DNA of 64,000 nucleotides. Source: Bacteriovoracia bacterium (GTDB lineage: Bacteria; Bdellovibrionota; Bacteriovoracia; Bacteriovoracales; Bacteriovoracaceae). The stretch is taken from positions 32,001-96,000 of the forward strand of contig JBKHVI010000003.1 in NCBI GenBank assembly GCA_046570105.1, in the 5' to 3' direction. The position numbers were made by a program, and so were the translations under genes. The notes below the pieces were generated by a model that ran no database searches, was not told the origin of the DNA, and was given only the letters and a program-made list of their open reading frames with translations. The stretch's first letter is position 1. Each line of letters begins with the position of its first letter. Positions 4,274-19,810 of this stretch are shown here, piece by piece.

Positions 4274-5275
4274 CTAAGGATATTTCTCAACTAGTTGAGC
4301 TGCTAGCTCCTCCGCATCGGAGCGAATCCCACGCAAGAAGCGAGAACGAAAGTCTTTGTTCCTGGGGGAACCTAGATAATAGACATTAGGGTGTGGAAGT
4401 GGGGCCATGTCTGAAAAAGAAAATCCAGTTGTAAAAATGAGCACATCACATTTTATAGGTGAACCATTTTTAAAAAAAACCTCATCACTGGATATTCTCT
4501 CAATTATTCCACGACAAACAATAGGCTTATGTTTGATCAATTTATTTACTGACTCATCCATCAGAACTGGAAAGTTCAAACGAGGCCACAATCTCGCGAC
4601 GAGTGCTTCAATGCCTATGCTAAACCAGACAGGCAATTTATGAATCCATGCTGGTGAGAAACGAATGGGACTGCGATGACTGATTATAAAACTGACTTTG
4701 CCTTTCGTTTTTAATTCAATCTCTTCAATAATTTGTCCCGCCGATAAACGGCTTCCAACTATGAGTACTTTTTTGTTGGTGAAATCAAACTTGTCTGTAG
4801 GGTTATCCACGAAATGAAAGACCGGGATGCTCGCCTGACTAATGATATCTTTTGAAAGTGAATAAGCAGGATTATTCCAGTACCCGGTAGCAAAGACTAC
4901 TGCCCGTGCCTTGATTGATTCGTTATCTGTTTGCAAAATTAGTTCGTTGCTTTTGGAATCGATCGTTAATACGGATTTATTATATTCGACAGAGAGATGA
5001 TGCTTGCGCGCGTACTCGGCAAAATAGCCATGTATTTCTTGCGCTGATAATTGCCTTTTGCTTGGAAAAAGTTCGCGATCTTCACTATCAAGATGATTCA
5101 TCGCCCAGGGTGTCAGAATTTTAAGAAATGAAGGCATCGCTTTAAAAGAACTCGCCGGCCCCTCTGCCTTCTCTAGCACTCGATGAGGAATATTTCTGCG
5201 TAAAAGTTCGCGCGAGAGCTTAAGCCCAGCTGGACCAGCTCCCACGATAACAATCTTGGCAACATCATGTGGCAC
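4274..5275 (-). CDS. FAD/NAD(P)-dependent oxidoreductase (flavin monooxygenase-like)
   Basis: GAGPAG FAD motif, FATGY, second dinucleotide motif IVGSRLSA, FTTGF; 5 bp from the upstream radical SAM gene. Confidence 0.8.
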   Translation of the reverse strand: MPHDVAKIVIVGAGPAGLKLSRELLRRNIPHRVLEKAEGPASSFKAMPSFLKILTPWAMNHLDSEDRELFPSKRQLSAQEIHGYFAEYARKHHLSVEYNKSVLTIDSKSNELILQTDNESIKARAVVFATGYWNNPAYSLSKDIISQASIPVFHFVDNPTDKFDFTNKKVLIVGSRLSAGQIIEEIELKTKGKVSFIISHRSPIRFSPAWIHKLPVWFSIGIEALVARLWPRLNFPVLMDESVNKLIKHKPIVCRGIIERISSDEVFFKNGSPIKCDVLIFTTGFSFSDMAPLPHPNVYYLGSPRNKDFRSRFLRGIRSDAEELAAQLVEKYP

Positions 5276-5280
5276 TTTGA

Positions 5281-6780
5281 TTAAGCAAAAGTCGTAAGCT
5301 TAACTCGCTCAGGTTCATTCACACCTTCAAGATCCAAGCGCTTATCTTTGAAGCGATGGATATTGTTATAAGCACAGCCAGGCATCAATCGACCATCAGG
5401 TAGAGCATAGTGGGTACAACATTTGCGAATACGTGAGACCTCAAAGTCAAACTCGTCCATAAACGCATGAATGAAAATCGCTTTAACTTTAGTTTCAGAA
5501 AGCTTCCAAAGCTGCTCTTGTCCAAGAGTGCCAGCGCCCTGATATTCGTTCAAAATCGACTTCAATGATTGCAGCACCTGCTCTGTATCAACCGTGACAC
5601 TTTGTGCACTCCAGAGATTATAGATGGCATCTTGAATGAGCTGTTGGGCTTTATCATCGGCTTCTAAGATTGCTCGATTGGTAAGCATGTTGAGATAAAC
5701 GGCTACGTCACCAAAGTGAGTCAAAGGAACGAATTTACCGTTGTCCAACTTCAAAACGTAACAAGCGGTATAACAAGAAGGATGCGAGCATGGGATAGGG
5801 AGAAAATCTTCTTTTTTGAGCCAATCAGTTTGCTTCTCAAGTAACTGATGAATATCCACTTGTGTAAGACGTCCCATTGGATCTTGTGGGAATGAGGTTC
5901 CGCCGGCACCAGTATACGCTGCTGGCTGAATAGTCACCGAGGTAACAAAGTCATGCTTAAGCGCAAAGTCGATAACTTCACCTAATTCATGATCGTTGAA
6001 GCCGCGGGCAACTGTTGGAACGAAGATCGTGGGAATATTATATTTCTCACACATCTCGAGCGTTTTCATTTTTGTTTCAAGTAATGAGGCACCACGAAGT
6101 TTTTTGTAATTCTCGTTGTTCAAAGAATCGAACTGCAATGAAAGATAAAGACCCATATCCTTAAAGCGTTTGGCAAATTCTTCGTCCTGAGCAATTTTAA
6201 TACCGTGAGATGAAACCAAAACACGCTTAATATCTTTTTGCTTACAGGCGTATTCCGCTAATTCAAAAAACTGTGGATGAAGTGTCGGCTCTCCACCCGA
6301 AAGTAACATCAACTCAAGACTTCCTTCTTTACGCAGAAGTCCGTCAGTGATGTTTTTAAATTCCTGCAAAGACATATTATAATTGTTCTGATTCCAAACA
6401 ATACAGATGGGGCACTTAAGATCACAGGCATTACTAATTTCAACAATGGGAGAACATGTATGCTGTTCATGTTCTTCACAGAGCCCACAATCATCAGGGC
6501 AGCCATCTTTAAAATGGGTAGAGAATTCTTTCGGCTTAGTTCCAGGTTTGGTGTAAGTCAGACTTTTAACCCAATAATCAACATCAGATGAGAGAAGTGC
6601 TTCAAACTCACCATGGTGAAAACAGCGTTTCGTAAGAATAACTTTATTGTCGCGAAAAATAATTTTGGCCTGAATAGTTTTGCGACATTTGGGGCAGATT
6701 GACTGTGTCGCTGAAAAGAATGAGCCTTTACGGTCTTCTTTATCCTTAAACGTATTAGTTCCGCAGCATCCTACATCCAT
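5281..6780 (-). CDS. Radical SAM protein, Tes/MJ0619 (tetraether synthase / GDGT-MAS)-like family
   Basis: C29xxC32-x20-C53xxH56, CPDDCGLCEEH, radical SAM motif CDLKCPIC, SGGEPTLHP, PCSHPSC and C-terminal KCCTHYALPDGRLMPGCAYN; AGGAGA RBS. Confidence 0.85.
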   Translation of the reverse strand: MDVGCCGTNTFKDKEDRKGSFFSATQSICPKCRKTIQAKIIFRDNKVILTKRCFHHGEFEALLSSDVDYWVKSLTYTKPGTKPKEFSTHFKDGCPDDCGLCEEHEQHTCSPIVEISNACDLKCPICIVWNQNNYNMSLQEFKNITDGLLRKEGSLELMLLSGGEPTLHPQFFELAEYACKQKDIKRVLVSSHGIKIAQDEEFAKRFKDMGLYLSLQFDSLNNENYKKLRGASLLETKMKTLEMCEKYNIPTIFVPTVARGFNDHELGEVIDFALKHDFVTSVTIQPAAYTGAGGTSFPQDPMGRLTQVDIHQLLEKQTDWLKKEDFLPIPCSHPSCYTACYVLKLDNGKFVPLTHFGDVAVYLNMLTNRAILEADDKAQQLIQDAIYNLWSAQSVTVDTEQVLQSLKSILNEYQGAGTLGQEQLWKLSETKVKAIFIHAFMDEFDFEVSRIRKCCTHYALPDGRLMPGCAYNNIHRFKDKRLDLEGVNEPERVKLTTFA

Positions 6781-6880
6781 AGATTCTCCTGGTGAGGAAA
6801 CACCCTACCATAAGGCCAATTTTAGATACAAGTTCCGAATAACCGAGCTTTTTTTTTGCTTTTTTGTCAGAATAGCAACC

Positions 6881-9049
6881 ATGTGGTCACGACTAAACTT
6901 TTTACGCTCACCGCTATCGGTGCTAGCGGTCTTTATAGGCTTTCTGGGCCTTAGTTTTTCTCAACTAAAAAATCTTCGTACCGAGCTACAAATTTATCAC
7001 CTGGACGATACACGCTTTAAAACGGCGCAAGATTTTCAGCGTGTCCGCAAAAGTTTTGCTGACCCTGCTTCGTTTCAATTGCACTGGTCGAAGCAAAATG
7101 GGCCTTTCACCATGGTTGAAGTATGCCAGATAGAAAAGCTTGTAAGAAATCTCAAAAAACTTACTCCTATCAAGGGAACTTTCATTGCCAGCATCAGCTC
7201 TCCGCTTGATCTGCGCACCTTTGAACTGACTGGCAGTCGCCTGTGGTTTCCCCGACTCCTCAGTGTGCAGTGCCAAAATCCCACAACGGAACCCGTCGAC
7301 CTCACTCCGCTCTATAATTTTCCGCTCTATCTTCAGCCGCTCACAACTGCTGCCATTCTTTCTTACAACCTGAAGCTCGCAACTGAATCCGACAAGGCAG
7401 AAAATGCTCAGCCTGACATTATCGGTGAAGCGTATGTAAAAGCTTTGCAACTACAAAAGGAAATACCAGGTCTTGAGCTTCACATTGCAGGCCGCGGGGC
7501 GACTCCTTGGCATATGCAAAAAATGATGATGAGTGATGCTCCGATTAATCTATTGGTCTTTCTCTTCATTTTGATTTTCTTTCGTCTTTTTCACGGGTCT
7601 TGGACAAGTGGCTTTCTGCTGACCGGCTCCCTTGTGACGACTCTCACCATTTCACTCGGTGTGATGGCTTATCTTGATATTCCAATCGACGCTCTCACTA
7701 ATACCCTATTTATCCTGGTTATTATTTCTGGAGTTGAAGACTACATCTTTCTCGTGGAAGAGAAGCGAAAAAATCCTCAGACGCAAGTAAACCAACCCTT
7801 TATTAAATTGCGAGCTCCCAGCTTTTTCACCTCTCTTACGACTATCATAGGGTTCGGAGTATTAGTTTTTTCTAGAATAGAAATCATCCAACGCTTTGGA
7901 GCGATCGCCGCTTTTTCCGCTTTGATTGAATGGTTTATTTTACTCTTCGCACTTCCCGCACTGCTGACACTTTTCCCAGCACTTGCTAACAAGTGGCTGC
8001 GAATAGACAAAGCTTGGGCACCTCGCTGGCTAGATAGTCTGGCGACATTGCGCCCCTCCTTCATAGTAAGTGTCATTATGGTTGCCATTTCTTTGGCAGG
8101 ATTTTTAGCATTCTCACACTTGAAATATAATGATTCTCCGAGGGAAAATTTCCCAATTCATCATCCTGCTCATAAAGCCTATGCTTTTTTAACACAGCAG
8201 TTCGGCTCTGAAGGATCACTGGAGATCGTCTTCCCGGCGAAGCATGCAAAACCTAAAAACTTTGAAGAAAAAATTTCTTCCATCTCTGGTGTCGTCAAAA
8301 TCCATTCACTGCCTGCTCTGTTTCATGCTATTCCACAAGACCTACCCCAAGAAGTCACTGAAGATATTAAACGCCATATTATGCAGACTGATCTCGCCCA
8401 ACATTATCAAAATGATGAGTGGGAAAGATGGGTCGTGTATGTTCAATCGATAGATCAAGAATCTTTGAAGAAAATGATTATTCAGATTCAAGCGATTTGT
8501 CAGGATACCTGTTTCCCGAGTGGCGAACTCGTTGTCTACGCAGACTTCGCAGATGAAGTCGCGAGCACACTTTTTAAAGGACTTGATCTCTCACTTTTAT
8601 TAGTGGGACTCACAGTCATCTTCTTGTGTTGGTGGAGAAAGATCAAACCCCTCTGGCCGGTACTCTTTAGTCTATTTTGGTGCCCACTAATGCTGTTGTT
8701 GGTGCTAGTGGTATTTAATGTTCCCATCAATCTGATGACTTGTTTAATAGGAGCCATTTTTGTGGGGCTCTCGGGTGATAACTCTATTCAGTATTTATTT
8801 GCCAGCAAGAATCTTGAGGATGGAGCGCTTGAGCGCTCACGTGCCACTGTTGTATTAACCATACTCTCAATGTGCTTATGTGGCTTCTTATGGGGATTTA
8901 CCCTTCGGCCGCTGCACACCGTAGGAACATTGCTGGCCGTCGGATTTGCTTTTATTCTGATTGGTGATCTGTGGGTATTACGAGGTTTACTTCATAAAGC
9001 GAATCGTGGGGCCAACACGCGCACCAAAGATTCAATTGAAACAAACTGA
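6881..9049 (+). CDS. MMPL/RND family transporter
   Basis: Two repeats of a periplasmic domain plus TM bundle, with GVEDYIF and GLSGDNSIQY motifs; ATG 6881 avoids overlap with the divergent gene. Confidence 0.85.
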   Translation: MWSRLNFLRSPLSVLAVFIGFLGLSFSQLKNLRTELQIYHLDDTRFKTAQDFQRVRKSFADPASFQLHWSKQNGPFTMVEVCQIEKLVRNLKKLTPIKGTFIASISSPLDLRTFELTGSRLWFPRLLSVQCQNPTTEPVDLTPLYNFPLYLQPLTTAAILSYNLKLATESDKAENAQPDIIGEAYVKALQLQKEIPGLELHIAGRGATPWHMQKMMMSDAPINLLVFLFILIFFRLFHGSWTSGFLLTGSLVTTLTISLGVMAYLDIPIDALTNTLFILVIISGVEDYIFLVEEKRKNPQTQVNQPFIKLRAPSFFTSLTTIIGFGVLVFSRIEIIQRFGAIAAFSALIEWFILLFALPALLTLFPALANKWLRIDKAWAPRWLDSLATLRPSFIVSVIMVAISLAGFLAFSHLKYNDSPRENFPIHHPAHKAYAFLTQQFGSEGSLEIVFPAKHAKPKNFEEKISSISGVVKIHSLPALFHAIPQDLPQEVTEDIKRHIMQTDLAQHYQNDEWERWVVYVQSIDQESLKKMIIQIQAICQDTCFPSGELVVYADFADEVASTLFKGLDLSLLLVGLTVIFLCWWRKIKPLWPVLFSLFWCPLMLLLVLVVFNVPINLMTCLIGAIFVGLSGDNSIQYLFASKNLEDGALERSRATVVLTILSMCLCGFLWGFTLRPLHTVGTLLAVGFAFILIGDLWVLRGLLHKANRGANTRTKDSIETN

Positions 9050-9372
9050 GCCAAGTCTTTGGGCGCTAAGTTATCCGCTGGATTCAACCCTGGAAGTAAG
9101 GGTGCTAAGCGTTTTTTTGCTTCATCACTTAAGATATCATTTTGAACGGCTTCTTCACGACTGAGTCCAGTGCGCTTAAGGAAATCAAAATCATTTTTTT
9201 CTAATTGAATATTGAGGTCACCTTCAAGTTGGAAAATGATATCCATAAAATCCAACGAGTCAGCACCCAGATCAGTCATGATCTTGGTATCAAGAGTCAA
9301 GTCTGCTTCTGATCGCGCCATACTACGGGCGACACAGGCAATAACATTTTTTTCAAGTTCTGAGCGATTCAT
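8992..9372 (-). CDS. Acyl carrier protein with internal insertion (126 aa)
   Basis: DLGADSLDFMDI phosphopantetheine site; GAGGA RBS; last gene of the fab operon. Confidence 0.85.
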   Translation of the reverse strand: MNRSELEKNVIACVARSMARSEADLTLDTKIMTDLGADSLDFMDIIFQLEGDLNIQLEKNDFDFLKRTGLSREEAVQNDILSDEAKKRLAPLLPGLNPADNLAPKDLAQFVSIESLVRVLAPRFAL

Positions 9373-9384: not shown

Positions 9385-10083
9385 TTACCATAAACTATAG
9401 CCACCATCGACTGGAAGTACTACTCCAGTTATCGCTGATGCATCATTAGATAACAAAAAACTGCAAGTTTTTGCAATCTCTTCAGCACGAATTAAGCGCC
9501 CCATCGGTACCATTTCAGCAGGATCAACTCCATTTTCTTCCTTAGATTGGCGCAACATTGCCGAATCAACGGGTCCTGGTAAAACGATATTGATTCGCAC
9601 ATTACGCTTGGCCATTTCGCTGGCAAGAGCTTTGGTTAATCCTTCTAGTCCTGCTTTAGTAGCAGAATACACCGCATGACCACGAGTCATACGATGAGCA
9701 GAAACACTTCCCATTAAGACAATACTGCCGGCACGTTTTTTAGAAAATAAAGGCAGAAGCAGTTGTAAAAACTTAGTGGGTGCAAGCATGTTGGTTTGAA
9801 ACATTTCATTCAAATGCTCTTCAGCTAATCCCATCAAAGGCCCACTGTGATGGATCCCCGTGCAATCAACATAACCGACCAAATCTTCTTGGCTCACTTT
9901 CATGATAAGATTTTTGCAAAGTTCAGGATTATTAACGTCCAATTCAAACCAATCAATGGGTACAGCTGGGTTTTTCTCGCGTCGAAAAGTTCCAATAACA
10001 TTAAAACCGCGACTCACTAAATCTTGCGCTACAGCGAGACCAATCGCGCCCGATGCACCAGTCACAAGGATAGTTTTTTTCAT
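9385..10083 (-). CDS. 3-oxoacyl-ACP reductase-like SDR
   Basis: TGASGAIG, GSVS, YSATK; ATGA overlap with fabF stop. Confidence 0.85.
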   Translation of the reverse strand: MKKTILVTGASGAIGLAVAQDLVSRGFNVIGTFRREKNPAVPIDWFELDVNNPELCKNLIMKVSQEDLVGYVDCTGIHHSGPLMGLAEEHLNEMFQTNMLAPTKFLQLLLPLFSKKRAGSIVLMGSVSAHRMTRGHAVYSATKAGLEGLTKALASEMAKRNVRINIVLPGPVDSAMLRQSKEENGVDPAEMVPMGRLIRAEEIAKTCSFLLSNDASAITGVVLPVDGGYSLW

Positions 10084-11294
10084 TCTGCACTTCCTAGGAT
10101 TAAACAAGAGTTATGGCCACCAAAGGCAAATGAGTTCTTAAGTACAATTGAAAAATGCCCCTTGCGTGGCTGACCTAGTACGTGATCAAGCTGGCATGAC
10201 GGATCAATCTCCGTGGTGTTAATCGTCGGATGTAAACTCTGCTGCTTCATACATAGAAGAGCACCCACTGTTTCAAGTGCCCCACCCGCAGCAATTAAAT
10301 GGCCTGTCATAGATTTGGTAGCAAAAACAGGAACACTCATTGCTCGGACACCTAACAACGTTTGGATGGCCTTCGTTTCCATCACATCGTTTTTTGGTGT
10401 TGATGTTCCATGTGCATTCACAGCACTAATATCATTCGCCGTGATCCGTGCATCAGCTAATGCATGTTTCATCGCTCGCAGTGCGCCTTCTCCGTCTGGA
10501 TGAGGATCACTGGGACTATATGCATCCATACTGTGGCCATGGCCTAGAATGAATCCTTGAATGTCAGCACCTCGCTTTTTGGCATTCTCTTCACGCTCTA
10601 ACACCATGAAAGCTGCTCCCTCACCAAGCACAAAACCATCACGATTTTTATCAAAAGGCCTAGAAGCTTTTGTAGGTTCATCATTACGTGCACTCAGCGC
10701 ACCTAATAGACAAAATCCACCCAGTCCCATGGGATTCACCATAGAATCTGTCCCTCCGGCAACAACCACATCTACCTCGCCCGAACGTAAGAGCTCGAGG
10801 GCTGTTCCTATCGCATCAGTACTCGCCACACACGCAGAGAGATGAAGTCGCGGAGGTGAGTGCAAGGAGAATTCGTGAGAGATCAAGTGAACCACTCGTT
10901 CTGCAGGATAATTTAGAAAAGCGAATTTATCTTCATCTGTTACCGCCGGGTAACGGTTTTTTTGCCAATCAATTAAGTCCGGGACGTGAAAAAGTTCAAG
11001 ACCCAAACCTAAACTTAAAGCACATTTCTTAGGAGCATAATGTCCATTTAACTGCGCCATAGCCATCGCTTCTCGGGCAGCTAAAATGGCAAACGACATT
11101 TTCACATCACGCTGATCCAAGACGATGGCAGAATCATCGACTTCTCCGGCAATTTGGGTCTGGTACCCACTTGGATCAAAGCGAGTGATGCGTTTAATTC
11201 CCGACTCACCTTTTTGTAATGCCTGATAAAATGCTTCACAGCCAATACCATTTGGAGAAACAACTCCCATCCCTGTGACAGCGATGCGTTTCAT
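10080..11294 (-). CDS. fabF: Beta-ketoacyl-ACP synthase II (FabF-like)
   Basis: Cys-His-His triad in SACVAS, NAHGTST, KSMTGH; C-terminal NSFAFGGHN. Confidence 0.9.
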   Translation of the reverse strand: MKRIAVTGMGVVSPNGIGCEAFYQALQKGESGIKRITRFDPSGYQTQIAGEVDDSAIVLDQRDVKMSFAILAAREAMAMAQLNGHYAPKKCALSLGLGLELFHVPDLIDWQKNRYPAVTDEDKFAFLNYPAERVVHLISHEFSLHSPPRLHLSACVASTDAIGTALELLRSGEVDVVVAGGTDSMVNPMGLGGFCLLGALSARNDEPTKASRPFDKNRDGFVLGEGAAFMVLEREENAKKRGADIQGFILGHGHSMDAYSPSDPHPDGEGALRAMKHALADARITANDISAVNAHGTSTPKNDVMETKAIQTLLGVRAMSVPVFATKSMTGHLIAAGGALETVGALLCMKQQSLHPTINTTEIDPSCQLDHVLGQPRKGHFSIVLKNSFAFGGHNSCLILGSAE

Positions 11295-12145
11295 AAAGTC
11301 GCTCCCATCGAAAAATGGTAGCGATAGTAATCATTTTTATAAGAAAAATGGATGACTTCTTTTTTCAGACGTTTCTGTTGAAGTGTATAAAGATCTTGCA
11401 CTGGCCCCAGATGTTGATCAATCTCAGTTTTAAAGCCGATCTCTTGAACTCCACCTGGTGGATGATATTGCATTTCAATTGGACTAACCAATCTGCAGTT
11501 CTGGTGGGTACCCTTACGTGCTAAAAGCCACATGCCTCCACAGTCAGGAGTTAAGACATTTTCAGGAAGACCCATCTTGCGGTTATAATTTTTTACCAAC
11601 GGATTTTGCTGATGAGTCGCCGCTCCCACGAGGGCATAGTCTACCCGGCCTCGACGCAAATCATGCATGGCTGCTGCCAACGCCTGGCCCCACTGATAGC
11701 GATCAGGATATGTCACGAGATAAGCTTCTTTGAGGCCGTAGTTATGAGATAGATGAAAGGCGGCCATATTGGGTAGACACTTAAATGTTGTCAGTGGATT
11801 AAGCGAAGGCATCGCTTTGGTCACAAAGTTCTCTTGTGAAAACTCTCCTTCAATTTGAGATTTCTCACCAAGAATACGAAGCTCTCGTTCTTCAAATGGC
11901 AGAACACCTACACACAAATAAAGTCCGGTACGCTGATTTCGTGTTTCTTGATCAAGTGGATACTGCTCAAGCACCTGGTGACAGGCTTCCATCGCAAGCA
12001 TATCCATCTTTGACATGAATTTAAGATTTTTGGGTTGCACTAAACAGCGACGTACATCAAGACTCACTTCTTGATTCGCACCACCTTGCAAGATGTCGGG
12101 CCCCACAAAAGATGAGGCTAGGAGAACTATCTCAGAATTGGACAC
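11291..12145 (-). CDS. Truncated ketosynthase-like protein (chain-length-factor-like, probably non-catalytic)
   Basis: KS N-terminal motifs KFMSKMD, RTGLYL, LKCLPNMAAFHLS-like (TFKCLPNMAAFHLS), GRVDYALVGA; no AC active-site motif and no HGTST; GTG 12145 is a tentative start. Confidence 0.75.
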   Translation of the reverse strand: MSNSEIVLLASSFVGPDILQGGANQEVSLDVRRCLVQPKNLKFMSKMDMLAMEACHQVLEQYPLDQETRNQRTGLYLCVGVLPFEERELRILGEKSQIEGEFSQENFVTKAMPSLNPLTTFKCLPNMAAFHLSHNYGLKEAYLVTYPDRYQWGQALAAAMHDLRRGRVDYALVGAATHQQNPLVKNYNRKMGLPENVLTPDCGGMWLLARKGTHQNCRLVSPIEMQYHPPGGVQEIGFKTEIDQHLGPVQDLYTLQQKRLKKEVIHFSYKNDYYRYHFSMGATL

Positions 12146-12606
12146 GGCTGAAGCTCCCGGCTCCAAATTTTATAAATCTGCAGACGCTGTGCTGTTAGCG
12201 CATTGGACTCCACTTCTAATAGAGTCATCATCAATCTCCCCTGAACTCGAATCTCATCCCCACAACGTGCTTCCACACTCAGCATAGCTGTCTCATCAAT
12301 GAGAGAATCAATTTTGGCAAAATAATCAAGTGCATCGCCTGGCCGACTCGGAATCTTGAATTTCATTTTATCAACAGTAGAAAGCACTGCCCTTCTGACG
12401 GGGCGAGAGGCATCTTGATTATGAGTTGTTTCCAATAAAAATCCTGCCACTTGTGCCAGCCCCTCTATAATCAGCGCACCGGGGAAAATTGGAATATCGG
12501 GAAAATGATCGTGGAGGACTTCGTCAGTCAAAGTCACGCACTTGCGAGCTTTAATTGTTTCACCTAATTTAAGCTCTTTAATGACATCAAAAAGAAAATA
12601 TCTCAT
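12127..12606 (-). CDS. 3-hydroxyacyl-ACP dehydratase (FabZ/FabA-like)
   Basis: DHFPDIPIFPGALIIEGLAQ hotdog catalytic His/Glu motif. Confidence 0.9.
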   Translation of the reverse strand: MRYFLFDVIKELKLGETIKARKCVTLTDEVLHDHFPDIPIFPGALIIEGLAQVAGFLLETTHNQDASRPVRRAVLSTVDKMKFKIPSRPGDALDYFAKIDSLIDETAMLSVEARCGDEIRVQGRLMMTLLEVESNALTAQRLQIYKIWSRELQPCPILR

Positions 12607-13298
12607 AGGGCCCCATCGGCGACGACTGACTCGCCAGTTATATACGTATTATAGGTAAGCATTCCATGCACTAGCTCTGCCACTTCATTTGGTTTCATAT
12701 ATCTGCCGAGCGAACAGTGTTTTAAATATTTATCTTTCAAACCTCGTGGAAGTTGCTGCGATACTTTCCCTTCAACAATTCCCATACAAAGTTGGTTCAC
12801 CAGAATTCCATGCTCTCCCAACTCGTGGGCGGCAGATTCCACAAGACCTTTCAGTGAGGCTTGGCATTGCGAATAAAAAACCGGAGCGGTTTGAGTCTTC
12901 ACTCCATCGAGAGTATTAAGAAAAAGTATTTGTCCTTTTTCATTCAAAAGCCGCTTTGCTTCTTTAATCAGTAGAAAGGGAGCTTCCACTCTTATTTTGT
13001 AAAGCTCATGCATAAACTCTGGGGTTGTTTCTTCCGCGGTTTTAAAAGCAGGATAATCACTTTTGAGAAGTTGCTTAAAATCAATTTGAGCGGCGTAAAC
13101 GATGGCATCATGGCCCGCTTTCAAATCCCAAGGTTTCAAAAGATTAAGTTCAAATCCTTTGGCACCGAGTGCCTCGAGATTTCTTGCTTCTTCGCGATTG
13201 CGACAAAATGAAAAGGCGACTTCGTGGTGCTCTAAGCGCAAATGCTTAACCAATTCACGGCCAATTTCTCCTGTGCCCCCAATAACAAGTATTTTCAC
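12603..13298 (-). CDS. Atypical SDR (FabG-like, YxxxK lysine lost)
   Basis: GGTGEIG; YSQCQ in place of YxxxK; YITGESVVADG. Confidence 0.8.
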   Translation of the reverse strand: MKILVIGGTGEIGRELVKHLRLEHHEVAFSFCRNREEARNLEALGAKGFELNLLKPWDLKAGHDAIVYAAQIDFKQLLKSDYPAFKTAEETTPEFMHELYKIRVEAPFLLIKEAKRLLNEKGQILFLNTLDGVKTQTAPVFYSQCQASLKGLVESAAHELGEHGILVNQLCMGIVEGKVSQQLPRGLKDKYLKHCSLGRYMKPNEVAELVHGMLTYNTYITGESVVADGAL

Positions 13299-14023
13299 TA
13301 AAAACCTCCATCCATCAAAACGGTGGAGCCAGTCATATAGCTATTCTTTTCTGAGATCATAAAAGCAGCGAATTTTGCGACTTCATCAAATTCGCCCACT
13401 CTCCTAAGTGCCACATGGTTTTCATAATCTTTCACCATATTGTCAGGAAGATTACGTGCAACCCCTTCTTTGAGCAGTCCAGGTGCCAAGTTCAATACTC
13501 TCACTCCATAGCGACCCACTTCTTTTGCAAGTGTAGCTGTAAAGCCATGCAGAGCCGCTTTGCTAGTTGCATAGTGCACGGGAGCGGCCAGCATTTTCTC
13601 TCCCGCTAGAGAGCCGATATTGAGCACGACACCTTTTTTACGACGAATCATGGGTGGTAAAAATACTTGCGTCACATGAAAAAGACTCTTGGTGTTGCCA
13701 TAAACGACTCGATCCCAGTCTTGTTCATCCTGTAGTGGAAAAGGCATCGCCTGAGAAACGCCGGCATTGTTCACTAAAATATCAATAGTCACATTCTTCT
13801 CATCCAAGTTTTTTTTGAGAGTTTCCATATCCGAACGCTTGAGCGCGTCGGCACGAAAATACTCACCACAACCCATCTGGCGTTGTGTTTCCTGCGCTCC
13901 AGCTTCATCGCTTAGATACGTGAAGAAGACGTTTGCTCCCTGCCTTTTAAATTCCAGACAGAAAGCGCGCCCTAAACCTTTTGAGCCACCTGTCACCAAT
14001 ATGTTTTTTCCTTGCAACAACAT
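13298..14023 (-). CDS. fabG: 3-oxoacyl-ACP reductase
   Basis: TGGSKGLG, NNAG, NIGS, YATSK. Confidence 0.85.
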   Translation of the reverse strand: MLLQGKNILVTGGSKGLGRAFCLEFKRQGANVFFTYLSDEAGAQETQRQMGCGEYFRADALKRSDMETLKKNLDEKNVTIDILVNNAGVSQAMPFPLQDEQDWDRVVYGNTKSLFHVTQVFLPPMIRRKKGVVLNIGSLAGEKMLAAPVHYATSKAALHGFTATLAKEVGRYGVRVLNLAPGLLKEGVARNLPDNMVKDYENHVALRRVGEFDEVAKFAAFMISEKNSYMTGSTVLMDGGF

Positions 14024-14785
14024 TTAAGCTCCCACCACATGCAGGCCACCATCAACAAACTGCACAGTACCGGTGACATGCTTTGAGAGCTCACTTGCGA
14101 GATAAACAGCTGTAAGTCCTACATCGTTGCCATTCGTATTTTGGCGCAGTGGAGCTTTCTCTTTGGCCATCAAGTAATGGGCATCAAATCCCTCTACACC
14201 CATCGCCGACATCGTTCTGACGGGTCCAGCAGAAATGGCATTTACTCTTACTCCTTGTGGTCCAAGTTCATGTGCCAAGTAACGCACACTACTCTCTAGT
14301 GCGGCTTTCGCCATTCCCATCATGCCATAGCCTGGTATCACGCGCTCACTGCCGATATTAGTCAGCGCCAGAAGACTTGCTCCCGGATTTAGGTAAGGCT
14401 GTACAAGTTGAGCTAAACGGACAAACGAAAAGGCACTGACTTCTAATGTTTCTTGCAACCCCTTGAGACTGGTGCCCATCAGTCCGCTGGCCAACTCTGA
14501 CGGCGGAGCAAATGCCATGGAATGCACGACAATATCTATTTTTCCCCACGCCTGAAGCGAAGAAGTTAAATTCTTCCAATGATTCTCATCGCGCACATCT
14601 AAAAGTTGGCAAAAACTTGCTGACAATTTTTCTGCCAACGGAACAGCTCTCTTCTCACTACTAGCAATTCCATACGTGAGTGCAATCGATGCGCCTTGGG
14701 CATGGAGACTTTCTGCGATCGACCAGGCCAGGCTTCGATCATTGGCCAATCCAAGAATCAAGGCCTTTTTATTTTGCACTAGCAT
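14024..14785 (-). CDS. fabI: Enoyl-ACP reductase
   Basis: GLANDRSLAWSIA, HSMAFAP, YGMMGMAK, ISAGPVRT; ATG 14785 with AAGGA upstream. Confidence 0.9.
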   Translation of the reverse strand: MLVQNKKALILGLANDRSLAWSIAESLHAQGASIALTYGIASSEKRAVPLAEKLSASFCQLLDVRDENHWKNLTSSLQAWGKIDIVVHSMAFAPPSELASGLMGTSLKGLQETLEVSAFSFVRLAQLVQPYLNPGASLLALTNIGSERVIPGYGMMGMAKAALESSVRYLAHELGPQGVRVNAISAGPVRTMSAMGVEGFDAHYLMAKEKAPLRQNTNGNDVGLTAVYLASELSKHVTGTVQFVDGGLHVVGA

Positions 14786-14814
14786 TTTCTTTCCTTGTTG
14801 CGGATGATCGATCC

Positions 14815-15771
14815 ATGTCCAAAAACCTTCTTTCACGCTGGTTCGAAGTTTATCAAGAACTCGGTCAGCCCATTGGAATTCATACTTTTCGCGTTGATAA
14901 GCGCGACGGCCAAATTGAGCACCAAGAACACTCACATATCGAGTGGGATGGTTTCAGTCTGGCGGTCTATAAGCTTCGCCAATTAGGATGGGTCATTCAA
15001 CCCCCACGTCGGCTAAAATCATTTTCCCTTTCTTTTTTAGCTAAAGTGAAAGCCTTTTTTCATTATTTAATTTGGGCGCGAGTGAGAGATGTAAGATGGA
15101 AAAAATTTGATGCACAGCGTACTGGTCATAACCCTCCTCAAATTCATGTATTTGAACAAGAAATGACAGAAAAATGGCTTAGAGATTTAGCACAACAAAA
15201 TCTATCACCTAATGCTTGGCTGCTTCACCGTCTGAACAAGCTCACTGCACCGTTAATTCACAGTTCAGAGGGTATTTGGTGGATTCCGGTCGACTATCGT
15301 CCCTACTCAGACTTTTCTTGGGATGAACCTAATGTCGTGTCTCATATAGCTGTATCAATCAACACGTCGCAAAATCCAAGATTGATAGAAACTTTTATTC
15401 AGAAGAACTTAATAGATGGTGCACCTTGGGCGGCCTGGAAATGGATGCAATTGATTGCTAAATTTGGGAAAACAACAATGAAAGGCATCCTGCAATCACA
15501 GCTCAAAAAAAATCGCTGGTGCGGCACAATGACTTATTTGGGACGCTGGCCGAATCGTTTTGCGACTGCTCCAGTGGACACACCCTATCGGCTAGTAGGT
15601 GCACCGCCACCGATGCTGGGACACCCTATCTCGATGGGCGTGAGTCTTATGTGCGATCAACTCTGTGTTGCCTTTACCAGTCATTGTTCCCTTTTTTCTG
15701 AAACTGAATCGCAAATGTTCTTTCATGATTTTTTAGATGAAGTATCAAATGGAATGAAAGGACAAGTATGA
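14815..15771 (+). CDS. Putative acyltransferase (condensation/CAT-like fold)
   Basis: HIEWDG matches HxxxDG; PVDYR..N and TYLGRW segments typical of this fold; start uncertain. Confidence 0.6.
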   Translation: MSKNLLSRWFEVYQELGQPIGIHTFRVDKRDGQIEHQEHSHIEWDGFSLAVYKLRQLGWVIQPPRRLKSFSLSFLAKVKAFFHYLIWARVRDVRWKKFDAQRTGHNPPQIHVFEQEMTEKWLRDLAQQNLSPNAWLLHRLNKLTAPLIHSSEGIWWIPVDYRPYSDFSWDEPNVVSHIAVSINTSQNPRLIETFIQKNLIDGAPWAAWKWMQLIAKFGKTTMKGILQSQLKKNRWCGTMTYLGRWPNRFATAPVDTPYRLVGAPPPMLGHPISMGVSLMCDQLCVAFTSHCSLFSETESQMFFHDFLDEVSNGMKGQV

Positions 15772-16814
15772 GTAAATTTAAATTCATTCTCTCATTTATA
15801 TTTTTTATCGCACTGACTGCTTGTGGAATTTTTGCAGCAGCGATGCAAACAGAGCAGAAAAATTTTAGCTTTGACTTGATTGCCAGTCTTCCTTGGACTG
15901 TTGTCTCTGCATTGATAATTTCTTCCATCTGCATTTATCTAGTTGATATCCTCCGCTTCTTCATTTTCTCTCATATGATTGGAGTACGACTCCAGTTTCT
16001 TCATGCGCTAGAAGCAGCCATCGTAAATTTATTTTTTGGATGGGTAACACCAGGGGCTGCCATGGGTGCACCGGCGGCTGTTTATACTTTAGGCAAGAGA
16101 GGTATCCCGTGGGATGCCTCATTAATTATCTGTTTTGGAAAATCACTAACAGGTTTTGGAACAATTTTATTATTAGCATTTGTTATGATTGCCATGGGTC
16201 TGGGCCCACAAATTGATAATATTTTTATTTATGGGATCTTGTGGAGCGCATCTTTTATTGCCTTCTTTTTTATCGCTCTGCCCATTGTAGGTAGCTTTTA
16301 TTCGGCGTCGACTCACCGATCGTTAGATCGTATTGAACAGAAACTTTTTTCCAAAAATCCTAAGATCAAGCTTCGTGCGAACAAGATATTTAAAGTACTA
16401 AAAGATATGATTGAACGTCTGCGGTTGTTACATAACCAAAGAAAGTTTCTATTTCTCATCGCGCTTGTTTCACAATTACTTTATTTCGCAGCTTTCATTG
16501 CACCCGCCGTTATCGTTTGTCATTATTTCGGAGGAGAGATTAGCAAGGCCATACCCCACTCACTCATTTACACTGCCCTTGCCTATTCTGCGCCGACCCC
16601 TGGTGGAGCTGGTATCTCTGAAGCATCCTCAGTCATTTTCTTTAATACAATTGTGCCAGCGATGAGCGCGGCTTATGTCGGAGTCATCTTCCGAGGATTT
16701 ACTTTCTATTTCCAAATTCTTATGGGGATACTTTATTTCCTTTTTTTTGGTGGGGGGTCTGCCATTCTTAATAGTAAAAATGCATTAGCTGGGAAATCAC
16801 ATGAGCCCAGTTGA
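15768..16814 (+). CDS. Lysylphosphatidylglycerol synthase TM-domain / flippase-like protein (UPF0104)
   Basis: Multi-TM protein with FGWVTPGAAMG, PTPGGAGISE, FRGFTFY motifs. Confidence 0.8.
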   Translation: MSKFKFILSFIFFIALTACGIFAAAMQTEQKNFSFDLIASLPWTVVSALIISSICIYLVDILRFFIFSHMIGVRLQFLHALEAAIVNLFFGWVTPGAAMGAPAAVYTLGKRGIPWDASLIICFGKSLTGFGTILLLAFVMIAMGLGPQIDNIFIYGILWSASFIAFFFIALPIVGSFYSASTHRSLDRIEQKLFSKNPKIKLRANKIFKVLKDMIERLRLLHNQRKFLFLIALVSQLLYFAAFIAPAVIVCHYFGGEISKAIPHSLIYTALAYSAPTPGGAGISEASSVIFFNTIVPAMSAAYVGVIFRGFTFYFQILMGILYFLFFGGGSAILNSKNALAGKSHEPS

Positions 16815-17461
16815 ATGTAAACTATTTAGATTTTTTTGACCTTAAACTGATTAAGGAACTGAGAAACAAAATCAAAAGAAAAGAATCACATTTCAAACCT
16901 ATCGAAGCCAAATTTGGCTTCAACCTTCCACTAAGTTTATTAAACGGTATTGAAATTCGAAAAAACTTTCCAGAAATCGTTTCGTTTGCTGAAACGAATA
17001 TCAAGGAATTAGTTGAACGCGAAGTAGGGACGCCAATCAACCTGATGAGAGATAATCTGCGCTCAATTCGTATCCAGCGCTATACTTCTCCCAAAGAGGG
17101 TTTCCTCTGGCATATTGATGGAGCCGACTACACTGTCTTTATCACCTTAAGTAACACTCTCAAAGGTGGAACAGAGTACATCTCTTTTAAACGCAGTTTG
17201 CTGCTAAAACCCTTGGTGTATTTCTATCCTTTTCTCGTGCTATTTAATCGATGCTCCTGGGCCATTCGTCCCTTCGCTCCACGAAGGATGCTGGGCGAAC
17301 CAGGTGATCTTATTCTGTTACAAGGAGGAAAATCGGCCCATAGAACTTATTGTGAGAGTGAGAGCGGCGAGAGACAGATTCTGGCCATAAGCTTTGATCG
17401 AGTGACAAAACCTAAAAACCCTATCTGGGATTTTATTGCGCAAAAGCTTGTGCACCAGTAG
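16811..17461 (+). CDS. 2OG-Fe(II) oxygenase
   Basis: WHID (HxD), KGGT, GDLILL, distal H (SAHRT) and Arg (ERQIL); TTG start overlaps the upstream stop. Confidence 0.7.
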   Translation: MNVNYLDFFDLKLIKELRNKIKRKESHFKPIEAKFGFNLPLSLLNGIEIRKNFPEIVSFAETNIKELVEREVGTPINLMRDNLRSIRIQRYTSPKEGFLWHIDGADYTVFITLSNTLKGGTEYISFKRSLLLKPLVYFYPFLVLFNRCSWAIRPFAPRRMLGEPGDLILLQGGKSAHRTYCESESGERQILAISFDRVTKPKNPIWDFIAQKLVHQ

Positions 17462-18857
17462 ATTTATCTTTAGACACTTTGCTGACATCTTTCGGTACCT
17501 CATTGCCTGCACCGAAATAGACAGGCACGATGCCGCGACGAACTTTGTACATATAATAAAGATTCGACAGCAGATGGTAGTGCTTTAATTTATACTTCCC
17601 TCTCCAAAGTCGAAGTAAAATTGATCGCAGAGAATAGAAGCGACGAAGCGCTCGCCAATAGCCACGCTGAATCTCATCCGCCGACATATGGGGATGCTTA
17701 AAGACCACATAAGACTCTCGAAAATGGCTCAAATCTTTATCGACGATCATTCCGCTATCAAATACTTTCTTTCCGAGAGGAGTCTTAGGATAAGGCGTAT
17801 AAAGAAAGAATTCAGCAATAGACACACCCATCTTCTCTAACCATTCAACAGTCTCATCAAAAGTTTCCTGAGTATCCTCTGGAAATCCGAAAACAATCAA
17901 TGCATGGACAGCAATTCCACTTGCATGAATTTTCTGAATAGCTTTTTCAAAATCGCTAACACGATTAAACCCCTTAGCGACTTGATTCAAATTCTTTTGC
18001 GAGAGCGATTCAAAACCGACGGCAACAAAAACACAGCCGGCCTCTTTCGCAAGCTGTAATAATTCTGGATCTTTGGCAATGTTGACTGTGCACTGTGTTC
18101 CCCAGCCCACCTTAAGATCTTTCATCGCTCGAAAGAGTTCTTTAGAATAGACGACGTCTTCCATTAGATTATCGTCAACGAATGAAAGCTGTCGCGACTT
18201 ACTGGCCTTAATATCTCTTACGACATCGGCAACTGGACGTAAGCGATAGCGCTTTTGATAAAACTCAATGATCGAACAATATTCACAAACGAAAGGACAT
18301 CCGCGAGTTGCCTGGACAGGTAGCACGGCCATGCGACTTTTGTCTGCCAGGTCATAGCGAGGCACCGGAAGATCTTCGAGGGGAAAAGGTTTGTCCTGTT
18401 GGTAGCTTTTTTTGAGTTGCCCATGCTCTATATCGTGAAGCATCTGAAGCCACACTCCTTCCGCTTCACCAACACAATAGGCATCGACATAATCTTCAAT
18501 TAATTCCGGGTGCATGGTAGGAAGGAAGCCTCCCATGATGACAATCTTTCCTCGTTTCTTAAACTCTTTGGCTATCTCTTGAGCGCGTTTGAGCTGCATA
18601 ACCTGGGCATGAATCCCTATGACATCCGCATCTGTGTTAAAATCGACATCTTGGAAATATTCTTCAATCTTTTCTACTTTGATATGACTGGGTGTCATCG
18701 CTGCTAAAATAAGCAAACCCAACTTCTCCACGTTGACTGTCGTCAGACGATTCCACCATCCCTTGGATTGAACGAGTCTGCCCTTGTCGTCATAATGGGC
18801 ACTGTGAATAAACAGTACCTTTTTGATTTTAGGATGAGCTGTCACAGGTTGATTCAT
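17433..18857 (-). CDS. Cobalamin-binding radical SAM protein (BchE/HpnP/Grs superfamily)
   Basis: N-terminal B12-binding domain (LGLLILAAMTP, IMGGFLPT, VGEAE), TRGCPFVCEYC, FVDDN, GFES, TPYPKTPL. Confidence 0.9.
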   Translation of the reverse strand: MNQPVTAHPKIKKVLFIHSAHYDDKGRLVQSKGWWNRLTTVNVEKLGLLILAAMTPSHIKVEKIEEYFQDVDFNTDADVIGIHAQVMQLKRAQEIAKEFKKRGKIVIMGGFLPTMHPELIEDYVDAYCVGEAEGVWLQMLHDIEHGQLKKSYQQDKPFPLEDLPVPRYDLADKSRMAVLPVQATRGCPFVCEYCSIIEFYQKRYRLRPVADVVRDIKASKSRQLSFVDDNLMEDVVYSKELFRAMKDLKVGWGTQCTVNIAKDPELLQLAKEAGCVFVAVGFESLSQKNLNQVAKGFNRVSDFEKAIQKIHASGIAVHALIVFGFPEDTQETFDETVEWLEKMGVSIAEFFLYTPYPKTPLGKKVFDSGMIVDKDLSHFRESYVVFKHPHMSADEIQRGYWRALRRFYSLRSILLRLWRGKYKLKHYHLLSNLYYMYKVRRGIVPVYFGAGNEVPKDVSKVSKDKSTGAQAFAQ

Positions 18858-19810
18858 TTACTTAAATCTTCGCTTGGAAAAGTTATCTCAAATCTCAGCC
18901 CACCTAGCGAGGACTGTCCTAACTTGAGCTCTCCTCGATGTTCATCCAAGCATGCTTTTACCGAGATAAGCCCTAGCCCCGTCCCAGTAGACTTAGTCGT
19001 ATAGAAAGGCTCAAAGATTTGATCGTACTTTTCTGGTGGAATACCTTTGCCATTGTCCTCGATAGAAAACTTTATCGCTTCAGCCTTATCTTGAGCCAAA
19101 GTGATTCTTATCTCAGGATTTACAGTATGAGCATTAGCCGCTTCAGCTGCATTCAAAATGAGATTCAATATCATTTGATGTATTAAAACGGAGCGACCTT
19201 TAAAACTGAAAGAGCCCGCTGATACCTCAGTGTCAAGCTTGCATCTCATCAGTGCCTTATGATGAGATGCGATCTCGACACATTCGCTCAGTACAGAAGA
19301 AAAATTGAAACTCTCAATGCGCCCCATTTCGGAATTACTGGCGGTTTTTAACTTTTTCATCATTTCGATGAGACGATCTGTAGAGGCGCGCAGTTTAACT
19401 AGCGCATCTTGTGTCTCAGTACTATGGCCATTTAAGCTCAGCACATGCTCCACACGCAGCGTGATGATACTTAAAAGATTATTCGCATCATGGGCCAGAC
19501 ATGAAGCCAGCATCCCCGCAGCGGCCTTGCTCTCGGACTTGAGTAATGCCTCTCTCTCGCGCATAAGACGAAGGCCATCTTGGAAAATCTTTTGAAAAAG
19601 GATGTAGCAGAAAATAAAAAGACCTAAAGAGGAAAAGAACATGAAGCCTAGTCCCTTATACATCTCTAACTTTTCAAGCACCTCTTTAGTAGGCGCCATG
19701 CTGGCAACAATCTTTCCAGAAGTCAGAATATAAAGAGAAGCGAGGATGAAATATCCCACTGAGATGAACACAGTATATTTTAGGGGCTTACTCATGGCTA
19801 AATTCTTCAC
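18854..19810 (-). CDS. Membrane sensor histidine kinase
   Basis: Two TMs, H-box AHDANNLL, NLILNAAEA, DNGKG, FYTTK, GTGLGL. Confidence 0.9.
   Translation of the reverse strand: MKNLAMSKPLKYTVFISVGYFILASLYILTSGKIVASMAPTKEVLEKLEMYKGLGFMFFSSLGLFIFCYILFQKIFQDGLRLMREREALLKSESKAAAGMLASCLAHDANNLLSIITLRVEHVLSLNGHSTETQDALVKLRASTDRLIEMMKKLKTASNSEMGRIESFNFSSVLSECVEIASHHKALMRCKLDTEVSAGSFSFKGRSVLIHQMILNLILNAAEAANAHTVNPEIRITLAQDKAEAIKFSIEDNGKGIPPEKYDQIFEPFYTTKSTGTGLGLISVKACLDEHRGELKLGQSSLGGLRFEITFPSEDLSK

Follow-up and report, generated by a model that had tools for sequence, protein, structure and literature searches.

A type II fatty acid synthase-like gene cluster with a Tes-superfamily radical SAM enzyme in a Bdellovibrionota genome and its relatives on soil contigs

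A 64,000-nucleotide stretch of the genome of a Bacteriovoracia bacterium (contig JBKHVI010000003.1 of assembly GCA_046570105.1, positions 32,001 to 96,000; the whole stretch is hereafter called the window) carries, at window positions 4274-19810, 16 closely packed genes whose families were confirmed with Pfam and NCBIfam. This locus is the Bdellovibrionota variant of a widespread, uncharacterised family of gene clusters in which a small set of genes resembling a type II fatty acid synthase (FAS) or polyketide synthase (PKS) stands together with a member of the Tes superfamily of radical S-adenosylmethionine (SAM) enzymes. Tes, also named GDGT-MAS (glycerol dialkyl glycerol tetraether-macrocyclic archaeol synthase), is the archaeal enzyme that couples lipid tails. 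[quoted passage not shown]

An earlier note on this DNA, made from the letters of the window, had listed the 16 genes and proposed that they form a lipid pathway in which a chain is cross-linked, cyclised or methylated and is also hydroxylated, transferred to an acceptor and exported. The inventory was borne out by the Pfam and NCBIfam searches, motifs and structure models. The data show which families the genes belong to, which cofactor motifs the Tes-like enzyme keeps, that its gene is linked to the FAS-like genes, and that a long acyl carrier protein (ACP) is specific to the cluster; the chemistry itself is what we infer from them. That the 16 genes form one cluster making a radically tailored lipid is very probable, and its product is probably an undescribed, radically remodelled lipid of the cell envelope. 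To the complete reading, in which one specialised-lipid cluster builds an ACP-bound chain that is radically tailored, hydroxylated, esterified and exported, we assign a probability of about 0.5.

The Tes-like enzyme lies in a third branch of its superfamily

Residues 23-478 of the Tes-like protein align with the GDGT-MAS structure 7TOL (E 4.7e-70). We read its motifs against the account of the GDGT-MAS cofactors by Lloyd et al. The rubredoxin-like motif C29-x2-C32-x20-C53-x2-H56 is kept, and it is invariant in an alignment of 20 sequences. Equally invariant in 20 relatives are the ligands of the N-terminal auxiliary [4Fe-4S] cluster (C94, C98, C101 and H104, which match C73, C77, C80 and a His of GDGT-MAS), the radical SAM CX3CX2C motif (C119, C123 and C126), and four C-terminal cysteines (C336, C454, C455 and C469).

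When scored with curated models, the protein falls below the cut-off both for Tes (NF045702; 303.2 bits, cut-off 450), on which a whole-genome search agrees, and for TrsS (NF045646; 295.2 bits, cut-off 490), a radical SAM (seleno)protein whose function is not known (PMC13188914). Searching 1.84 billion cluster representatives yielded 6646 proteins with E<=0.001, of which 490 reach E<=1e-30. From the best 150 of these, 101 proteins of 430-580 aa were scored with NCBIfam; 16 pass the Tes cut-off, 12 pass that of TrsS, and 73 pass neither. In a FastTree phylogeny of 108 rows (the 101 sampled proteins, the window protein and six cluster-linked relatives), one side (63 rows) comprises all 16 Tes and all 12 TrsS sequences, and the other (45 rows, SH-like support 97) includes the window protein and its six cluster-linked relatives, as resolved by one quick method with a midpoint root, in a sample picked by similarity to the query, with Tes and TrsS labels assigned by the curated cut-offs and no named archaeal Tes sequence among the rows. 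There, Bdellovibrionota and soil sequences form a group together with the window protein (support 100), and a Sorangium/Polyangiaceae pair is close by.

Judged by its sequence, the enzyme is a superfamily member that appears to have the same cofactor set as Tes, is an orthologue of neither Tes nor TrsS, and belongs to a third, unnamed branch. The name 'Tes-like' in the earlier note holds as regards fold and cofactor motifs; orthology with Tes does not stand, given the score and the position outside the Tes clade. A predicted complex of the enzyme with the cluster ACP, both supplied as alignments, scored 0.00 (mark 0.32), which speaks neither for nor against binding.

Linkage to FAS-like genes is conserved in related loci

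We compared six genome loci and 80 metagenome loci with the window proteins by tblastn. The metagenome loci are the best 80 of 428 stretches that encode a relative, from 470 candidates, and dropping duplicates (L010, the same as L001, and L012, the same as L006) left 84 distinct loci, cited below by their L numbers. A gene for a FabF-like ketosynthase (KS) lies beside the Tes-like gene in 46 of the 84 loci, and in 29 of the 31 that have at least 10 kb of flank, counts that show linkage and not frequency. Any FAS-type gene was matched in the fetched flank of 73 loci, including 30 of these 31. L007, the one long locus without a FAS-type gene in this count, begins at its Tes-like gene; genes for the B12 enzyme, acyltransferase, MMPL and FabI are nonetheless present there. 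The 11 loci that gave no FAS-type match have a total flank of 1-10 kb. Gene order varies between lineages and gene content is retained. The grouping is not due to chance, for this set of genes is found again next to the Tes-like gene in related loci. The earlier note had named a lack of co-occurrence of the Tes-like gene with fab genes in other genomes as something that would refute its proposal; in the long loci such co-occurrence is instead the rule.

Pfam annotation of 66 open reading frames (ORFs) in four long soil loci defines the soil cluster types. Type A comprises a KS-like protein with a Cys-Gln-His triad, a short-chain dehydrogenase/reductase (SDR), the Tes-like enzyme, a B12 radical SAM enzyme, KS, ketoreductase (KR), long ACP, dehydratase (DH), a protein of unknown family and a flavoprotein. 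Type C has two 2OG oxygenases and a flavoprotein upstream and no B12 enzyme. In type D, two tandem Tes-like genes are followed by SDRs, a FabZ-like protein, a truncated KS partner, KS, an SDR and ACP. Tandem Tes-like genes whose products are 31-34% and 46-47% identical to the window protein occur in L082-L086 (e.g. L082:8430-11503), where the pair precedes a block of SDR, FabZ, KS-partner, KS and ACP genes.

The closest relatives of the Tes-like locus are in records titled Bdellovibrionales, Bdellovibrio and Bacteriovoracaceae metagenome-assembled genomes (MAGs). On the contig of the type A locus L063, a GuaA protein is 85-92% identical to the 120 matches listed, all of whose organism labels are Pyrinomonadaceae or Acidobacteriota, and Tes-like homologues of 46-47% identity are labelled Sorangium and Polyangiaceae. 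Among the Bdellovibrionota, the gene was found in four of 401 genomes searched, the source genome included, and in none of three genomes of the same genus. The source genome is a 3.0 Mb assembly in 131 contigs (88% complete). In a search of public sequencing runs, one DNA run from another study contained 0.79 of the sampled words and no RNA run was listed, so that the search is silent on expression.

Full-text searches of the literature, supplements aside (Supplementary Fig. 4 of Zeng et al.; table S21 of Sahonero-Canavesi et al.), returned no description of a Tes-superfamily enzyme within an ACP/KS cluster. The suggestion that this combination of genes is uncharacterised thus holds with respect to the literature searched, in which no characterised cluster of this kind was found. 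The combination is not peculiar to a predator, most relatives being soil contigs and one of these acidobacterial.

A dedicated FAS-like set with an unusual carrier protein

The ACP has a conserved C-terminal extension of about 50 aa. Sixteen cluster ACPs, drawn from all cluster types, share invariant Ser39, Leu81, Leu89, Leu93 and Leu107 and make up a distinct long subfamily of 126-147 aa. As the extension is common to all types, it argues for common descent of the whole cluster and not for repeated chance adjacency.

The KS retains an intact Cys-His-His triad, and its best match in the PDB is FabF (1J3N, 7.6e-87). By sequence comparison it is best described as a diverged FabF paralogue that is distinct from the housekeeping FabF. 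Alignments show its partner to be without the catalytic Cys and the His-His region, and a sequence search of the PDB gave no match at E<=1; we regard this partner as a putative chain-length-factor-like protein. The truncated form is conserved in L001, L002, L005, L006, L082 and L086, and the Bdellovibrionota homologues are likewise truncated. The second KS of the soil clusters (L020:7647-9041, L063:7478-8938 and L074:18892-20340) is full-length and has a Cys-Gln-His triad, unlike the truncated, Cys-less partner.

Three SDRs accompany these proteins. SDR1 scores 167 bits in the FabG subfamily, below the cut-off, and has the YxxxK motif. SDR2 has lost the lysine of this motif (Y-x3-Q), and homologues of 27-35% identity occur in most related loci. 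SDR3 is the most widely conserved neighbour after the Tes-like gene itself, and in most soil loci an SDR gene lies directly upstream of the Tes-like gene. Since separate paralogues of FabF (C16, 36% identity) and FabI (C4, 45% identity) are encoded on other contigs of the host genome, the cluster set is an additional, dedicated one, as had been proposed.

Tailoring, transfer, transport and regulatory genes

The flavoprotein gene lies 5 nt downstream of the Tes-like gene. Its product matches Pyr_redox_3, Pyr_redox_2 and FMO-like families only, and its best NCBIfam matches, ArsO and YpdA, are far below the cut-off. Homologues of 22-27% identity are present in 22 of the 84 related loci, including L011 and many soil loci. 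These matches suggest either a class-B monooxygenase-like enzyme or a reductase.

Two genes of the cluster without a Pfam match had been named in the earlier note as an HxxxDG acyltransferase and a 2OG oxygenase, and structure models concur with both names. In the acyltransferase, His41, Asp45 and Gly46 of the HxxxDG motif are invariant in six homologues, and an Atlas model has a template-modelling (TM) score of 0.80 to PapA5/condensation clusters. In Foldseek searches with a low-confidence model of our own, the leading matches (E 1.6e-5 to 1e-3) were to condensation domains, to PapA5 (1Q9J) and to wax synthase (7NXG), and all matches at E<=0.001 are of condensation, PapA5, wax-synthase or BAHD type. 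The models therefore point to a member of the condensation/PapA5/WS-DGAT superfamily, with a predicted two-lobed fold like that of chloramphenicol acetyltransferase (CAT). Profile comparison with the two unknown proteins of the soil locus L063 gave no relation (probabilities 0.5 and 0.1), so that the acyltransferase is specific to the Bdellovibrionota-type cluster. The oxygenase retains His101, Asp103, His177 and Arg178 in all of 14 homologues. Its AlphaFold2 (AF2) model has a mean predicted local distance difference test (pLDDT) value of 82 and matches HalB (7U6J), BesD (6NIE), HalD and a BesD-like hydroxylase (7JSD) in Foldseek with E values of about 1e-10 and TM scores of 0.68-0.76. Because Asp103 is retained in the HxD...H motif, where halogenases have HxG/A, the site is of hydroxylase type and not of halogenase type.

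By its scores, the B12 radical SAM enzyme fits no curated family: it reaches 107 bits for HpnJ (cut-off 578), 98 for BchE (481), 93.5 for the ladderane-type TIGR04072 (360) and 45 for HpnR (650). It is a member of none of these families. In L001, L002, L003, L006, L007, L008 and L011 and in soil type A, its gene is the immediate downstream neighbour of the Tes-like one, and it adjoins the acyltransferase gene in L001, L002 and L007. In L006 (positions 11365-13650; also the L012 record) one ORF of 761 aa, with no intervening stop, encodes both the B12 enzyme and the acyltransferase, through natural fusion or through an error of assembly; this ORF links the two steps. Among the 84 loci, many of them short, the B12 enzyme (34 loci) and the 2OG oxygenase (nine loci) never occur together, and both are present in the window. 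The idea that they are interchangeable anaerobic and aerobic versions of one step was rejected, given their differing gene positions and their joint presence in the window.

L006 and L007 too have MMPL genes next to the cluster, and genes for GDSL lipases are present in L005 and L007. The histidine kinase gene shares the 4 nt at its 3' end with the start of the B12 radical SAM gene, and L001 and L002 encode a kinase 28% identical to that of the window at the end of the cluster where the ACP gene lies. No response regulator gene was found beside the kinase gene.

Organization of the locus

The genes between 4274 and 19810 change direction of transcription four times, giving the order (-), (+), (-), (+), (-) (Table 1). 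The flavoprotein and Tes-like genes form the first group and the MMPL gene the second; the third runs from ACP through SDR1, the KS, the KS partner, the FabZ-like protein, SDR2 and SDR3 to FabI; the acyltransferase, flippase-like and oxygenase genes form the fourth, and the B12 enzyme and kinase genes the fifth. Same-strand neighbours overlap by 1-4 nt, many of them by 4 nt, or are separated by 0-12 nt.

Table 1. Genes of the cluster, with window coordinates and the matches that support each assignment
Product	Position	Strand	Support
FAD/NAD(P)-binding flavoprotein	4274..5275	-	Pfam Pyr_redox_3 7.5e-23
Tes-like radical SAM enzyme	5281..6780	-	Radical_SAM + HMPTM zinc ribbon; 499 aa
MMPL/HAE3-type resistance-nodulation-division (RND) transporter	6881..9049	+	MMPL 7.7e-8, Sterol-sensing 7.1e-8, TIGR00921 HAE3 1.7e-18
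ACP, 126 aa	8992..9372	-	PP-binding 5.5e-8
FabG-like ketoreductase SDR1	9385..10107	-	adh_short_C2 3.2e-46
FabF-like KS	10080..11294	-	TIGR03150 393 bits vs cut-off 493.75
Truncated Cys-less KS partner, 291 aa	11291..12166	-	ketoacyl-synt N-terminal 5.1e-7 (weak)
FabZ-like 3-hydroxyacyl-ACP dehydratase	12127..12606	-	FabA domain 1.4e-14; TIGR01750 88.8 bits vs 155
Atypical SDR2	12603..13298	-	adh_short_C2 3.5e-21
FabG-like ketoreductase SDR3	13298..14023	-	adh_short_C2 7e-49; TIGR01830 182 bits vs 298
FabI-type enoyl-ACP reductase paralogue	14024..14785	-	NF005717 FabI 270 bits vs 337
PapA5/condensation-superfamily acyltransferase, 318 aa, HxxxDG	14815..15771	+	motif + model; no Pfam match
Flippase-like membrane protein (MprF transmembrane-region family)	15768..16814	+	LPG_synthase_TM 6.8e-25; TIGR00374 85 bits vs 43.2 (above cut-off)
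Fe(II)/2OG oxygenase, BesD/HalD fold, 216 aa	16811..17461	+	motif + model; no Pfam match
B12-binding-domain radical SAM enzyme	17433..18857	-	Radical_SAM 6.8e-20, B12-binding 4e-7
Membrane histidine kinase	18854..19810	-	HATPase_c 1.7e-23

Several starts differ from the opening of the ORF. The MMPL ORF opens at 6680, antisense across the 5' end of the Tes-like gene, and translation likely begins at M68 (6881). For FabI, the domain begins at residue ~51, and for this reason M51 at 14785 is the likely start instead of the ORF opening at 14935. The most likely start of the acyltransferase is M46 at 14815, and that of SDR1 is likely at 10083, giving an ATGA overlap with the KS gene. The divergent likely starts of FabI and the acyltransferase are thus only ~29 nt apart (14786-14814), and their promoters must therefore fall within the adjoining coding regions. 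Promoter-like and terminator-like sites are not more numerous than in shuffled sequence (25 vs 28.1 and 19 vs 16.3), so that the scan does not define operons or transcription units.

The Pfam scan of the surroundings covered 22 ORFs from 590 to 23530. Two small ORFs (3608-4084 and 3343-3600) are on the same strand as the flavoprotein and Tes-like genes and may share their transcript; the N-terminus of the product of ORF 3608-4084 is hydrophobic and, by eye, resembles a signal peptide. Just past these ORFs, at 3315-3340, is a strong bidirectional terminator-like hairpin of 11 pairs (6 GC). [quoted passage not shown] A strong AT skew (-0.24) marks positions 20001-22000.

A proposed pathway and its alternatives

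In the pathway that we propose, the FabF-like KS with its Cys-less partner, the two FabG-like reductases, the FabZ-like dehydratase and the dedicated FabI would build a saturated acyl chain on the cluster ACP. The presence of a dedicated FabI is one point in favour of a saturated chain, and another is that GDGT-MAS works on fully saturated chains (Lloyd et al.). The Tes-like enzyme would take a hydrogen from an unactivated sp3 carbon of this chain, giving a new C-C bond that either joins two chains tail to tail, to form a long alpha,omega-bifunctional 'bola' lipid, or closes a ring or macrocycle within one molecule. Coupling of alkyl carbons is a tentative assignment for this step, at somewhat less than even odds. 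The B12 radical SAM enzyme could carry out a methylation or another radical step, and the 2OG hydroxylase a hydroxylation. The flavoprotein might oxidize the chain or, perhaps, deliver electrons to the rubredoxin-like domain of the Tes-like enzyme. The PapA5-like acyltransferase would then esterify the product onto a hydroxyl acceptor, with the flippase-like protein and the MMPL transporter moving it to the cell envelope, and regulation may fall to the histidine kinase, whose translation is coupled to that of the B12 enzyme. A bolder version of this scheme, unlikely in our estimate, holds that the third Tes clade joins two acyl chains tail to tail on its private long ACP, as an ACP-dependent, Mss-independent bacterial route to bifunctional or membrane-spanning lipids in Acidobacteriota (Pyrinomonadaceae), Myxococcota and a few Bdellovibrionota.

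Several observations weigh against this pathway. No product is known for any member of the clade, and the chemistry would be transferred by homology at about 35-40% identity. The Tes-like enzyme has extra invariant cysteines (C109 and C331), and His438, likewise invariant, occupies the place that the labile Met439, a ligand of the C-terminal auxiliary cluster, has in GDGT-MAS; its placement outside the Tes and TrsS side of the tree, with a score below the Tes cut-off, may signify a different reaction. Tes and the bacterial enzyme Mss are reported to act on complete phospholipids and not on ACP-bound chains (Lloyd et al.; PMC13159169; 2026 brGDGT paper). Outside the window, FabI homologues turned up in L005/L009 and L007 alone; the enoyl reductase is therefore outside the conserved core, and the ancestral chain may be unsaturated. 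The B12 enzyme, 2OG oxygenase, acyltransferase, MMPL transporter and kinase are each missing from many related clusters. The AF2 model of the acyltransferase is of low confidence (pLDDT 62.7; Foldseek TM 0.36-0.45), and its alignment is shallow because the homologue search gave just two proteins, one being the query itself. Finally, every related locus was found by way of the Tes-like protein and many of these loci are closely related to one another, so that their counts overstate independent support.

The possible lack of saturation bears on a route of ladderane or aryl-polyene type, in which an unsaturated ACP-bound chain, made by the KS with its inactive partner, KR and DH, would be cyclised by both radical SAM enzymes, through radical addition to double bonds or through ring closure or contraction, to give a ring-containing lipid and not a tail-to-tail dimer. 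The candidate ladderane cluster of anammox bacteria has the same make-up, namely a KS with a dead KS partner, an ACP of its own, a variant of FabZ, a flavoprotein and a B12 radical SAM enzyme (PMC10139942; 10.64898/2026.05.19.726425), similar clusters of FASII and radical SAM genes have been noted in Desulfotalea and Geobacter (PMC2649909), and GDGT-MAS too closes a macrocycle (Zeng et al., PMC8941075; 2026 review). A conserved core without enoyl reductase would suit such a route, as would the best, weak matches of the B12 enzyme to HpnJ, BchE and the ladderane-type family. The window nevertheless carries its own FabI, and its B12 enzyme is far short of the TIGR04072 cut-off and absent from 50 of the 84 related loci, many of them short. 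Moreover, the flavoprotein belongs to Pyr_redox_3 and not to the phytoene-desaturase type, and the KS partner is truncated, whereas the anammox partner is a FabF homologue with a mutated triad (10.64898/2026.05.19.726425). We therefore consider this route doubtful. Least probable is the absence of any single pathway, with the Tes-like and flavoprotein genes, the FAS-like operon, the acyltransferase, flippase-like and oxygenase genes, the kinase and B12 genes, and MMPL as separate units. Such a division would accord with the five transcription directions, with the varying accessory content of the relatives, and with promoter- and terminator-like sites that define no units. The Tes-like, SDR, KS, DH and long ACP genes, however, stay together across rearranged orders from Bdellovibrionota MAGs to a contig placed in the Acidobacteriota, the B12 enzyme and acyltransferase share one ORF in L006, and the B12 gene directly follows the Tes-like gene in seven Bdellovibrionota-type loci and in soil type A.

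A different substrate is assumed if the Tes-like enzyme joins phospholipid acyl ends across the bilayer, giving membrane-spanning core lipids of the diabolic or iso-diabolic acid type and possibly precursors of brGDGTs (branched glycerol dialkyl glycerol tetraethers); the FAS-like genes would then only provide a special chain, and the B12 enzyme would put in mid-chain methyls. This role has been proposed for bacterial Tes homologues (Zeng et al., PMC8941075; Halamka et al., PMC10087280), and GDGT-MAS binds ester-linked phospholipids (Lloyd et al.; 2026 brGDGT paper). To judge from family names, C-methylases are frequent among B12 radical SAM enzymes, and the sister cluster in L063 lies on the contig whose GuaA is of Pyrinomonadaceae/Acidobacteriota type (85-92%). 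Tes homologues were nevertheless reported in only three of 14 Acidobacteria that produce iso-diabolic acid (PMC13159169). Bulk phospholipids, moreover, would need no tight, ancient linkage to a private ACP, KS, KR and DH; by Pfam, the window has no glycerolipid acyltransferase or ether-forming gene; a PapA5-type acyltransferase and an MMPL exporter suggest an exported envelope lipid; and the gene is rare and patchy in the phylum. We hold bilayer-spanning coupling of phospholipids to be quite unlikely and retain the ACP-bound, exported envelope lipid as the preferred reading.

Implications

Bacterial relatives of Tes have been candidates since 2022 for producing membrane-spanning lipids and brGDGTs, which serve as palaeoclimate proxies. 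A survey of 13,919 genomes counted 456 bacterial Tes homologues and proposed them for brGDGT synthesis (Zeng et al., PMC8941075); according to a 2026 review and a 2026 brGDGT paper, these homologues are still untested, and producers of diabolic acid have Mss rather than Tes (Sahonero-Canavesi et al., PMC13159169). Mss, which looks unrelated, is the only bacterial enzyme proven to join tails. If a clade that joins tails in an ACP-dependent manner does exist, it could be a missing soil source of skeletons of the diabolic acid or brGDGT type.

The clusters described here reveal a large, distinct clade of the Tes superfamily that is locked to a private fatty acid-type assembly line with an unusual carrier protein, and they form a clonable unit predicted to yield long diacids, macrocycles or acyl chains with rings. 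According to a 2026 review, tailoring by radical SAM enzymes of lipids that are fatty-acyl, that is non-isoprenoid, has so far been proposed only for ladderanes and jawsamycin, and a third system would broaden this chemistry. As cultured Sorangium has homologues of 46-47% identity, genetics is feasible.

Comparison with known systems

Aryl-polyene clusters contain an RND/MMPL-type exporter and an acyltransferase, and are also marked by a starter adenylation enzyme, a thioesterase, a LolA-like protein and a glycosyltransferase. Pfam detected none of these last four in the 22 ORFs between 590 and 23530. The aryl-polyene type II PKS (the ApeO-ApeC KS/chain-length-factor heterodimer; PMC8358021) has in common with the window a KS/chain-length-factor pair, KR, DH and ACP. 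What separates the window from those clusters is FabI and the two radical SAM enzymes. We also considered PKS clusters of the cispentacin type, and the window is not a member (AmcF 227 bits vs 325, AmcE 29.7 vs 140, AmcB 20 vs 80). PapA5 and MmpL7 are paired in the assembly of mycobacterial phthiocerol dimycocerosate (PDIM), where, as here, an HxxxDG acyltransferase of the condensation superfamily is encoded with an MMPL exporter for a complex envelope lipid. The likeness to PapA5 (1Q9J) is one of fold and motif only, at 12% identity and a TM score of 0.36, and the window protein is shorter by ~100 residues.

With the anammox ladderane candidate cluster and its Desulfotalea and Geobacter kin, the locus shares the dedicated ACP, FabZ variant, KS and dead partner, flavoprotein and B12 radical SAM enzyme, and in the anammox cluster, as here, the product chemistry is unproven. 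It differs in that its B12 enzyme is not of the TIGR04072 type, its flavoprotein is not phytoene-dehydrogenase-like and its KS partner is truncated; the descriptions consulted of the ladderane cluster do not mention a Tes-superfamily enzyme as a part. Mss of Thermotoga and Thermoanaerobacter is a radical SAM enzyme that joins two fatty-acyl tails, the very reaction proposed here; it is described as only remotely related to Tes and acts on membrane lipids, and no private FAS set is described for it in the portions of that source drawn upon (PMC13159169). Archaeal Tes/GDGT-MAS (MJ0619; 7TOL and 7TOM; NF045702) has the same domain order as the Tes-like enzyme, shares with it the rubredoxin-like site, the N-terminal Cys3His site, the radical SAM motif and the C-terminal cysteines, and is homologous to it over the full length, whereas the latter is on a separate major branch of the superfamily, scores below the cut-off, has His in place of the labile Met439, and carries two extra cysteines. 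The archaeal gene stands among isoprenoid lipid genes and its product couples phytanyl chains, whereas the gene described here lies amid ACP, KS, KR and DH genes and the substrate of its product is presumably a fatty-acyl chain.

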